A stretch of DNA of 1,601 bases. It comes from Escherichia coli (lineage in GTDB: Bacteria; Pseudomonadota; Gammaproteobacteria; Enterobacterales; Enterobacteriaceae). How positions within the stretch are numbered: the first letter of the stretch is position 1; each line of letters opens with the position of its first letter. A program made the position numbers and the translations under genes. The notes under the pieces are model-generated. The model was not told where the DNA came from and searched no databases. It saw only the letters and a program-made list of their open reading frames with translations. The stretch lies in NCBI RefSeq assembly GCF_003334335.1, contig NZ_QOWQ01000101.1; one strand, 5' to 3'. Of this stretch, positions 1 through 1,601 are shown one piece after another.

Positions 1-1601
1 GAACTGGCCTACGCTCTCTGGCCTGGTGATGTGGATGCCGGAAACATTGACGGCAGCATCCATCGCTGGGCAAAAAAAGAAGTTATCGACAACGACCGCG
101 AAGACTGGAAGCGTATCTCGGCATCAATGCGCAAACAGCCTGATGCCCTTCGCTACGACCGCCAGACTATTTTTGGCCTTGTCCGTGAACGTCCGATCGA
201 CATTCACAAAGACCCTGTGGCACTGAACAAATACATTACTGAATACCTGACTACAAAGGGCGTGTTTGAAGATGAAGGAACAAATCAGAGCGCAACTGAT
301 ACTCTCTCGTCGCCAGTACCAGAAACTGATGCAGTGGAAACGGCAATTCCAGACAACGAAAAAACCGAATGCAAAGTGGAAGTCGAACCATCTGTAGAAC
401 GTGAGGGGCCGTTCTACTTCCTCTTCACCGACAAGGATGGCGAAAAATACGGTCGCGCAAACAAACTTTCTGGTCTGGATAAGGCGCTGTCTGCTGGGGC
501 TACTGAAATCACGAAAGAAGAATATTTCGCCCGCAAAAACGGTACATACTCAGGTTCACAACAAAATACTGGTGCATCTGACACGACCGCACAACCAGGG
601 TCAGTAAAAGTTACCGCTGACGAAGTAAACAAAATTATGCAGGCAGCCAATATCAGCCAGCCTGACGCCGATGAACTGCTTGCAGTATCACGTGGTGAAT
701 TTGTTGAAGGGATTAGCGACCCGAATGATCCGAAATGGGTTAAGGGGAACCAGACCCGCGATTCTGTGAACCAGAACCAGCAAGAAACGGAACAGAACGA
801 CCAGAAAGCGGAACAAAACAGCCCAAATGCGTTACAAAACGAGCCAGAAACGAAACAGCCTGAATCAGTGGCGCAACAGGAAGTGGAAAAAGTCTGCACC
901 GCCTGCGGTCAGACCGGCGGCAACTGCCCTGATTGTGGCGCGGTAATGGGCGACGCAACATACCAGGAAACATTCGATGAAGAGTATCAGCCTGAAGTTC
1001 AGGAAGATGATCCGGAGGAAATGGAAGGCGCTGAACATCCACACAAGGAGAACACTGGCGGCAATCAGCATCACAATAGCGATAATGAAACTGGCGAGAC
1101 GGCAGATCACCCAATTAAGGTGAACGGTCATCACGAAATCACATCCACCAGCAGGACGTGTGACCATCTAATGATCGACCTTGAAACCATGGGAAAAAAT
1201 CCTGATGCCCCGATCATCTCAATAGGTGCAATATTTTTCGATCCGCAAACCGGAGATATGGGACCGGAATTTAGTAAGACTATCGATCTGGAAACTGCTG
1301 GCGGAGTCATTGATCGGGACACCATTAAATGGTGGCTTAAGCAATCACGCGAAGCGCAATCTGCCATTATGACCGATGAAATCCCGTTAGATGATGCACT
1401 GTTACAATTGCGGGAATTTATCGACGAAAACTCCGGTGAATTTTTTGTTCAGGTTTGGGGAAATGGAGCCAACTTCGACAACACGATTTTGCGCCGTTCA
1501 TACGAACGGCAGGGGATCCCCTGCCCGTGGCGTTACTACAACGATCGCGATGTACGCACAATCGTTGAGCTGGGGAAAGCCATAGACTTCGATGCCAGAA
1601 C
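1..1601 (+). CDS. recE: Internal fragment (partial at both ends) of a large prophage RecE-like exonuclease (exodeoxyribonuclease VIII family) carrying a zinc-ribbon linker and a DnaQ-like 3'-5' exonuclease domain
   Basis: Frame 1 is open across the entire window (533 codons, no stop), while every other frame is broken by stops. Translation reads ELAYALWPGDVDAG...[25 protein letters not shown]...[27 protein letters not shown]...DPEEMEGAEHPH...MIDLETMGKNPDAPIISIGAIFFDP...WGNGANFDNTILRRSYERQGIPCPWRYYNDRD...AIDFDAR. The segment from codon ~224 to ~348 closely resembles the RecE (Rac prophage) linker region as I recall it ([24 protein letters not shown]...[27 protein letters not shown]...DPEEMEGAEHPH). 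Symbol given as recE-like; the domain after the linker differs from canonical K-12 RecE. Confidence 0.6.
895..936 (+). other. Four-cysteine zinc-ribbon-like motif (C-x2-C-x6-C-x2-C) in the linker of the CDS
   Basis: Codons 299-312 read [14 protein letters not shown], with Cys at codons 299, 302, 309 and 312. It is embedded in otherwise acidic, Q/N-rich low-complexity sequence, typical of a small metal-binding knuckle. Confidence 0.55.
1171..1601 (+). other. DnaQ-like (DEDD superfamily) 3'-5' exonuclease domain within the long CDS, continuing past the window end
   Basis: Exo I-like motif M-I-D-L-E-T-M-G (nt 1171-1194, acidic D393/E395 in window codon numbering). Exo II-like motif W-G-N-G-A-N-F-D-N-T-I-L (nt 1456-1491, D493). 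Candidate Exo III Y-x3-D in W-R-Y-Y-N-D-R-D (nt 1528-1551). Spacing and hydrophobic beta-strand context (PIISIGAIFFDP) fit the RNase T / DnaQ / Rv2179c-like fold. Confidence 0.7.

Follow-up and report, generated by a model that had tools for sequence, protein, structure and literature searches.

A conserved four-cysteine motif that is optional in RecE-like prophage proteins and recurs in other early proteins of temperate phages

Introduction

The closest described relative of the element studied here is RecE (exonuclease VIII) of the Rac prophage of Escherichia coli K-12. Two 2023 reviews describe its N-terminal region as having no known function, neither of them mentioning zinc, and name full-length RecE as the form used for linear-linear recombination and for the direct cloning of large gene clusters (PMC11611040, PMC11610958). 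Lambdoid early-left operons also encode DnaQ-like 3'-5' nucleases and nuclease-less 'RecE-2' proteins, to which no roles have been assigned, and the passages of that study that deal with these proteins describe neither a cysteine motif nor a role for them (PMC12315714).

Here we analyse a stretch of 1,601 nucleotides of an E. coli genome (contig NZ_QOWQ01000101.1 of assembly GCF_003334335.1), hereafter the window, which encodes part of a RecE-like prophage exonuclease. A preliminary description, made from the letters alone, had singled out a four-cysteine (Cys4) motif with a 12-residue tail at 895-975, and had read it as a conserved zinc ribbon embedded in a disordered linker of RecE, with a possible role in binding DNA, RecT or SSB. 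We show that this motif is under strong purifying selection at the peptide level, that it is optional within the RecE family, and that homologous copies are carried by phage proteins of other kinds.

Results

The four-cysteine motif is conserved as a peptide

Frame 1 of the + strand is open from end to end and is the only long open frame of the window. Its translation contains the motif exactly as first described: nucleotides 895-939 encode C-T-A-C-G-Q-T-G-G-N-C-P-D-C-G and nucleotides 940-975 the 12-residue tail. The four cysteines (C299, C302, C309 and C312 in the numbering of the window translation, which is used below unless stated otherwise; C551, C554, C561 and C564 of the 822-residue protein) form paired knuckles at 892..939 on the + strand, recognisable in the sequence by CxxCG and CPxCG, the rubredoxin-type knuckle consensus. 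The tail (940..975, +) is in alignments a constant companion of the second knuckle, with V, G, T and Y nearly invariant, and it probably forms a strand or short helix and the mini-core of the module. The window protein has seven cysteines among its 533 residues, and a CxxC-x4-12-CxxC arrangement arose in 15 of 200,000 shuffles of these residues.

In the protein alignment with K-12 RecE the best 20-residue stretch is residues 305-324 (nucleotides 913-972), identical at all 20 positions, which bears out the earlier statement that this is the best-conserved part; the second-best, residues 230-249 with 19 of 20 identities, had gone unmentioned. Selection was measured by Nei-Gojobori counts, comparing the window with K-12 recE and five other relatives. 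Against K-12 the motif (residues 296-321) gave proportions of synonymous (pS) and nonsynonymous (pN) differences of 0.40 and 0.05 and a ratio of nonsynonymous to synonymous change (dN/dS) of 0.09, and its core (residues 299-313) gave 0.60, 0.03 and 0.024. The flanks, by contrast, are diverged as had been stated, with pS 0.188, pN 0.211 and dN/dS 1.15 for the upstream linker (residues 253-295), and pS 0.144, pN 0.224 and dN/dS 1.67 for the downstream acidic linker (residues 322-375). The contrast between motif and flanks was repeated in four of the five other relatives, the exception being the related locus L090, where the motif reached a pN of 0.165 with saturated synonymous sites (pS 0.80). 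Across the six comparisons the motif had a pS of 0.4-0.95, and a pN of 0-0.07 in five of them.

The codons themselves vary between lineages at every conserved residue: each cysteine is written TGC or TGT, the proline CCT, CCG or CCA, and the glycine and valine each with four codons, while the copies of the Dam-type and Aeromonas carriers described below encode the same residues by different codons. The set extracted by pattern fixes the residues beforehand, so only its codon variation is informative, and the set of related loci on viral contigs, which was dominated by near-identical E. coli prophage copies, was used for codon statistics alone. When contexts were instead extracted free of any pattern, from 97 unique HMMER-found sequences, each cysteine was kept in 92-95 of them. 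The exceptions came from two point variants, from three fragments with a local frameshift, from one copy whose first knuckle is degenerate and from a misalignment. Since synonymous changes are frequent, replacements are rare, codons differ between lineages and the motif region has no match in Rfam, the conservation lies at the level of the peptide, and the motif is under strong purifying selection at that level.

The linkers on its two sides evolve in another manner. The upstream linker (757..885, +) is rich in Q, E, N and P, fast-evolving and indel-rich, with 81% disorder-promoting residues, a net charge of -6 and predicted local distance difference test (pLDDT) values of 27-38; the dN/dS given above for the comparison with K-12 falls to 0.3-0.5 against other relatives. 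The downstream linker (976..1164, +), DEEYQPEVQEDDPEEMEGAEHPH, is acidic and His-rich, with a net charge of -16 over residues 322-388 and a pLDDT of about 30, and its dN/dS was 1.0-1.2 against L090 and a further locus, L013. Both are indel-rich relative to K-12, and disorder-promoting residues make up 73-81% of them. Thus the part of the earlier claim that concerned a selected cysteine island stands, and the disorder of the surrounding linkers is plausible from their composition and from the low pLDDT of a model that is poor overall.

The knuckles vary in spacing and keep four cysteines

The loop between the knuckles contains a (GGC)2 run at 916..921 (+), which the codon table shows as (GGC)3 in most relatives; the window has lost one codon here and has a spacer of six residues (x6) rather than seven (x7, GGGN). 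The matches in the database are 1604 nucleotides long against the 1601 of the window, and this 3-nucleotide gap fits the loss of one codon. The run resembles a slippage-type length polymorphism, and the loop tolerates six or seven residues. Among 115 unique contexts the spacer was x7 in 104 and x6 in four, the window included, while two had the form C-x6-C-x2-C-x2-C; in this last, Aeromonas-type arrangement one ligand is relocated and the number of cysteines is still four. All four cysteines were retained in 110 of the 115 contexts, the other five lacking an intact first knuckle: representative protein P0138 through a deletion, P0141 and P0145 by partial degeneration, and P0114 and P0115 as fragments.

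Some of these sequences record rearrangements in the loop. In P0142, RecE (residues 1 to about 527) is fused in frame to RecT, with the junction within the knuckle loop, and in P0138 an internal deletion of RecE links GANAGGGN (about residue 245) to the knuckle GGGN, with loss of the first CxxC. The Gly-run of the knuckle seems to be a place where recombination or deletion is frequent. The Dam methylase of Salmonella phage SEN5 (L111, 682-1665) keeps the first knuckle, CDGCGRYDGGHC, followed by a denser cysteine cluster, AQCCPGIAACEEGWSFDCCGNCDICE, and has no VMGDATY, which shows that the knuckle can occur apart from this tail.

An alternative-frame open reading frame of 48 residues (window 977-1123, +), MKSISLKFRKMIRRKWK, supplies the junk tail of many database fragments, which are frameshifted at various points just 3' of the motif (for example P0046, P0061, P0066, P0086 and P0186). 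It follows that many E. coli copies of the gene are either pseudogenes or have sequencing frameshifts at this place.

Not all relatives of RecE have the motif

A HMMER search with the 177-residue module against 1.84 billion representative sequences returned only 69 proteins. About half of the long representatives at 50% identity keep an upstream 17-residue segment and have no Cys motif. In nine of them (P0154, P0161, P0163, P0166, P0168, P0172, P0176, P0180 and P0182) the upstream island is kept and the motif is absent, although P0154 matches the window protein in its DnaQ-type architecture. In other long relatives the motif stands ahead of a PD-(D/E)XK nuclease, ahead of a DnaQ-like nuclease, or in a protein with no nuclease. 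The motif is thus optional in the RecE family, and the expectation that an alignment of RecE homologues would show the four cysteines conserved throughout does not hold for the family as a whole.

The island that these proteins retain lies at 676..756 (+) of the window. It includes the stretch with 19 of 20 identities to K-12 RecE noted above. Its dN/dS was 0.04-0.27, and it has a weak match to DUF4072 (PF13284; E 0.26, residues 212-239 to model positions 2-29 of 46). It is more widespread than the cysteine motif, being found in the RecE-like proteins of Gifsy-1/2 and of Salmonella and Klebsiella phages, which have no such cysteines; the tblastn matches in these Cys-less relatives span query residues 9-50 only.

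In Shigella phage 75/02 Stx (L005, 2549-4597) a 682-residue 'exodeoxyribonuclease VIII' consists of the N-terminal and middle parts of RecE, knuckle included, without a nuclease domain, and it is followed by separate genes annotated gam, recT and exonuclease. This arrangement indicates that the N-terminal part of RecE can stand alone beside a complete Exo/RecT/Gam set. Finally, E. coli-type copies were also found under other taxon names, in a 'Lachnospiraceae' and a 'Proteobacteria' metagenome-assembled genome (MAG; L087 and L088) and in an 'Actinobacillus phage' (PP818812.1, H76). In the Proteobacteria MAG the copy has nearly the same sequence as K-12 recE, and these odd-taxon copies probably stem from source records with wrong binning or host assignment.

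Dam methylases and small phage proteins also bear the motif

The motif alone, with no other RecE part, makes up the C-terminal end of the Dam methylase encoded by the P2-like Enterobacter phage phiT5282H, and it also occurs alone in a 299-residue hypothetical protein of an Aeromonas phage and in the small proteins P0185, P0181 and P0162. Hidden Markov models (HMMs) derived from RecE match only the tail of the Dam methylase (NCBIfam 2e-5, PHROG 5.4e-8) and only the motif stretch of the Aeromonas phage protein (1.4e-6 and 2.2e-8), and tblastn gave 6e-6 for the Dam tail and 3e-5 for the Aeromonas phage protein. These similarities are statistically significant. The small-protein genes lie among early genes of differing kinds: RdgC-like and other early genes flank that of P0185, with RecT and Dam genes upstream of it, and that of P0162 lies ahead of Kil and GemA in a Mu-like early region.

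We scanned one genome per species from 100,044 species with the pattern CPDCG[PA]VM. Apart from TnpB matches, discussed at the end of this paper, all copies of the module were in Enterobacterales-type sequence (Escherichia, Kosakonia, Citrobacter, Enterobacter, Yokenella, Trabulsiella, Hafnia and Klebsiella), mostly as the tail of a prophage Dam; such Dam tails occur in all of these genera but Escherichia. To them tblastn adds the Dam genes of Salmonella and Klebsiella phages and of Aeromonas plasmids, and in all the module ends P2-like prophage Dam methylases of at least nine enterobacterial genera. Judged by these sequences, the motif is a portable module found across lambdoid, P2-like and Mu-like phage proteins and is not specific to RecE.

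Nine of 12 tailed Dam methylases (loci L091-L097 and L004) finish, a few residues past the knuckle, in an acidic tip whose last residue is Phe, such as TFDDLEAF, AFDGSEGF, FDDRNIF or ETQEPF, and the window protein itself ends in ...NQADF (L001). The C-terminal tip of E. coli SSB is DFDDDIPF. The Dam tips resemble it, which may be a hint of SSB-tail mimicry.

Other candidate relatives were tried and set aside. YdaE of Rac has no similarity to the module. A DnaJ-type CxxCxGxG motif misfits at the Gly positions; a neighbour of P0185 does carry CxxCxGxG. As for a component of a defence system, PADLOC matched DEDDh and methyltransferase domains only, with nothing over the motif and no match in the small carriers.

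The host gene is a RecE-DnaQ chimera

The window covers residues 253-785 of WP_097518794.1, the 822-residue prophage protein, which is annotated just as 'exonuclease'. Its top database match (99.8% identity) is a lambdoid prophage beside ompW in E. coli JE86-ST05. There the gene (locus L001, 5245-7713) is the final early-left gene, followed by xis and int, and upstream of it lie a gene for a cI-like repressor, ydfB, ydfC, dicB and ydfD. It is the sole recombination-type gene of its operon, no annealase gene (recT, bet or erf) being annotated in the 13.6-kb prophage locus.

The only confident Pfam domain of the window protein is PF16473 (E 3.4e-53; residues 389-531 to model positions 2-148 of 177), a DnaQ-like (Rv2179c-like, DEDDh) 3'-5' exonuclease domain at 1165..1593 (+), clipped by the end of the window and also matched by the PADLOC DEDDh model (1.6e-5). 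Against the RecE equivalog NF007259 the protein scores 267 bits, far below the cut-off of 1269 and the 1830 of K-12 RecE, and the match is confined to residues 246-624 and profile positions 271-602. BLASTP likewise aligns only the middles of the two proteins (residues 262-624; 39% identity over 370 columns, E 1e-59). The middle region of RecE, with DUF4072-like island, Cys motif and acidic linker, is present in the window protein, the islands being near-identical. The host gene is thus chimeric: its middle region is RecE-like, and where RecE has its 5'-3' nuclease it carries a DnaQ-like 3'-5' exonuclease. Its first identification as RecE proper has to be rejected, given the sub-threshold score, a C-terminus that is PF16473 and not PD-(D/E)XK, and the lack of recT.

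A hydrophobic and probably folded insert at 406-552, GPFYFLFTDKDGEKYGRANKLSGLDKALSAGATEITKEEYFARKNGTY, has no counterpart in K-12 RecE, where BLASTP opens a gap, and is kept in the DnaQ-type relatives P0154, L086, L087 and L090.

Discussion

The roughly 600-residue N-terminal part of RecE has gone without an assigned function over decades, and the Cys4 module is one of two short islands protected by selection in the middle region that the window protein shares with it. It thereby offers a precise and mutable handle on the function of this part. The first description held that no function had been assigned to the motif in RecE, and this agrees with the literature that we searched, which reports neither a function nor zinc binding, as with both reviews cited above; the search returned no paper on this motif, none relevant with 'CPDCG' and none linking tailed Dam methylases to zinc. 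Small Cys4 metal knuckles are well known as a kind, while this family, its portability between RecE and Dam and its optional presence appear to be undescribed.

Since the Cys4/CPxCG pattern is maintained, and four cysteines are preserved even where one has been relocated, the four cysteines probably bind metal. In the mechanism that we propose, nucleotides 892-975 would encode an autonomous mini-domain of about 28 residues in which the four cysteines of the two knuckles (CxxCG ... CPDCG) bind a single metal ion, Zn(II) or perhaps Fe, and the V-M-G-x-x-T-Y-x-x-F segment would pack on the knuckles. The module is an optional and portable cassette. Temperate phages of Enterobacterales and Aeromonas have it in early-region proteins unrelated to one another, within a flexible linker or as a C-terminal tail, and most of these carriers act on DNA: they are Dam methylases, several small proteins, and RecE-type proteins whose nuclease is of the PD-(D/E)XK type, DnaQ-like or absent.

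Because the carriers, the phage types and the neighbouring genes all differ, the most likely common denominator is a shared partner, probably a host protein that Enterobacterales and Aeromonas have in common. By docking on it, the metal-stabilised knuckle would tether the enzyme there. We therefore lean, by a modest preference, towards a mini-domain that is stabilised by metal and serves as docking tag for such a partner. This docking is suggested by the distribution of the module and by its acidic, non-basic composition: the loops are rich in Gly, Thr and Gln, conserved basic or aromatic residues are absent, the sole invariant charged residue is an Asp, and the module of RecE-type carriers has itself a net negative charge, with strongly acidic linkers (net -6 and -16) around it. 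RecT, one of the partners first proposed, is unlikely to be the general one, and a role specific to RecT is likewise unlikely, as the motif is also found on Dam methylases, small early proteins and Mu-like carriers, and the operon of the window prophage has no annealase gene.

Several observations weigh against this reading. Docking is an argument by exclusion, and the invariant hydrophobic residues could all belong to the core of the module, not to an interface. Many relatives are without the module, which is therefore dispensable for basic enzyme function, and rare natural variants exist with no first knuckle (P0138, P0145) or with one cysteine changed (P0020, P0067). Scans with CPDCG[PA]VM also skew the catalogue to well-conserved copies. 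Both AlphaFold2 models were of low confidence, the 47-residue motif alignment giving a mean pLDDT of 59.5 with a low-confidence helix at ATYQETF, and the 366-residue region a mean of 45.4 with a small bump at the motif, and Foldseek with the AlphaFold2 model gave no meaningful match.

A serious rival, although we judge it unlikely, is that the module acts purely in cis, in a structural or regulatory role, as a metal-dependent fold-switch, an oligomerisation staple, or an element of protease resistance or degradation (degron). Its place is always a flexible tail or linker, a self-contained core could be built from its conserved hydrophobic residues, and the different Cys-rich tail that follows the first knuckle in SEN5 Dam suggests that a generic metal cluster may suffice. 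A staple, however, would not require that P, D, G, V, M, G, T and Y be kept across unrelated carriers at saturated synonymous sites. Slightly less probable is a nucleic-acid-binding zinc finger that adds affinity for DNA ends or single-stranded DNA to the exonucleases and Dam. All carriers of recognisable function act on DNA, and short Cys4 or CCHC knuckles of recombination and nucleocapsid proteins are established binders of nucleic acids, an analogy that would fit; the composition described above speaks against it, with no conserved basic or aromatic residue, an Asp as the only invariant charge and acidic surroundings in RecE-type carriers.

The cysteines could also form disulfides or a redox switch in place of a metal site, the CxxC pairs resembling thiol-disulfide motifs in pattern, but we regard this as very improbable: the carriers act on intracellular DNA, presumably in a reducing cytoplasm, the Gly after the second Cys of each knuckle (CPxCG, CxxCG) is a metal-knuckle signature, and the weak HMM matches are all to zinc ribbons. 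That the conservation merely reflects recent mosaic recombination, a hitch-hiking block of DNA, or an element acting at the DNA or RNA level, is an explanation to which we give almost no credence. Lambdoid prophages are indeed mosaics, megablast finds a single match between the window and K-12 recE (nucleotides 836-1108, 82.7%), and the flank pS of 0.14-0.19 against K-12 points to recent shared ancestry of this block. Recent sharing would nevertheless not produce a motif pS as high as 0.4-0.95 beside a pN of 0-0.07 in five of six comparisons (0.165 against L090), nor the same residues written in different codons in Dam-type and Aeromonas copies, and the motif has no Rfam match.

Docking on a shared partner can be carried one step further, into a proposal to which we give a low probability. 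The knuckle may be a portable, metal-stabilised 'address tag' that temperate phages of Enterobacterales attach to RecE-type exonucleases, Dam methylases and small early proteins. Through it all of these would be brought to a single host hub located at replication forks or DNA ends; SSB, a protein that binds the SSB tail, the replisome and RecBCD are examples. Such docking might partly explain the advantage of full-length RecE over the isolated nuclease domain in linear-linear recombination. Since lambdoid, P2-like and Mu-like phages carry the module on Dam and on small early proteins, it is a candidate shared docking device with several independent test systems. Should it be merely a structural staple, the result would be an ordinary one, another small zinc knuckle.

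Comparison with known systems

The module shares with zinc ribbons and rubredoxin-type knuckles (TFIIB PF08271, DZR PF12773, RZ-type PF20173) the same two CxxCG/CPxCG knuckles and a hydrophobic strand after the second, the TFIIB parallel at the second knuckle being CPECGLVVGD. It differs from them in its spacer of 6-7 residues and in its own VMGDxTY tail. Canonical zinc ribbons have about 10-20 residues between the knuckles, which form beta-hairpins, and with a spacer as short as this the usual ribbon hairpins cannot form. None of 34 diverse members reached E 0.001 for any Pfam family (best DZR at 1.4e-3; first sequence at 0.099 or worse), the sub-threshold matches all being zinc ribbons or knuckles (DZR, RZ-type, TFIIB), and a profile search of the PDB gave weak zinc-ribbon matches only, that to TFIIB among them and the best (E 0.02) to an uncharacterised 68-residue chain, CEACGRESDTKYCNDCGKVM. 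The knuckles of the original 'zinc ribbon' thus hold good while the ribbon does not, and from these sequence patterns we consider 'paired Cys4 knuckle' the better-fitting name.

The zinc ribbon of TnpB/IS200-605 OrfB proteins of Methanosarcinales has the identical nonapeptide CPDCGAVMG at its second knuckle. There the first knuckle lies 14 residues off, RDHNAAxNI follows, and the protein, an archaeal transposon nuclease, is otherwise dissimilar. We rejected homology, the nonapeptide being all that is shared, and read the match as due to chance; it only shows that the peptide is compatible with a zinc-ribbon knuckle. Its occurrence in TnpB/OrfB-like proteins of Methanosarcinales MAGs (L101-L107) could mislead pattern searches.

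The Dam tails of P2-like (Peduoviridae) prophages, in contrast, are homologous to the module, at 58-75% identity. There it stands at the extreme C-terminus, after a complete Dam domain (TIGR00571, residues 2-280 of 323) and with no exonuclease, and is often followed by the acidic tip ending in Phe. Among the classes of early-left proteins, as far as they are set out in the relevant passages of PMC12315714, the window protein belongs with the DnaQ-like nucleases, and the motif-bearing Shigella phage 75/02 protein and P0127 resemble the nuclease-less RecE-2 proteins.

Closest of all is K-12 RecE, whose middle part (about residues 470-590) has the same module, the same upstream island and the same acidic linker, DPEEMEGAEHPH. 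The module lies there at about residues 517-547, outside the crystallised nuclease domain, and has an x7 spacer where the window has x6. It would fall between the RecE truncation points E423 and E564. The two proteins differ around this shared middle: K-12 RecE ends in a PD-(D/E)XK 5'-3' exonuclease and has recT downstream, whereas the window protein has another N-terminus, a DnaQ-like 3'-5' exonuclease and no recT.

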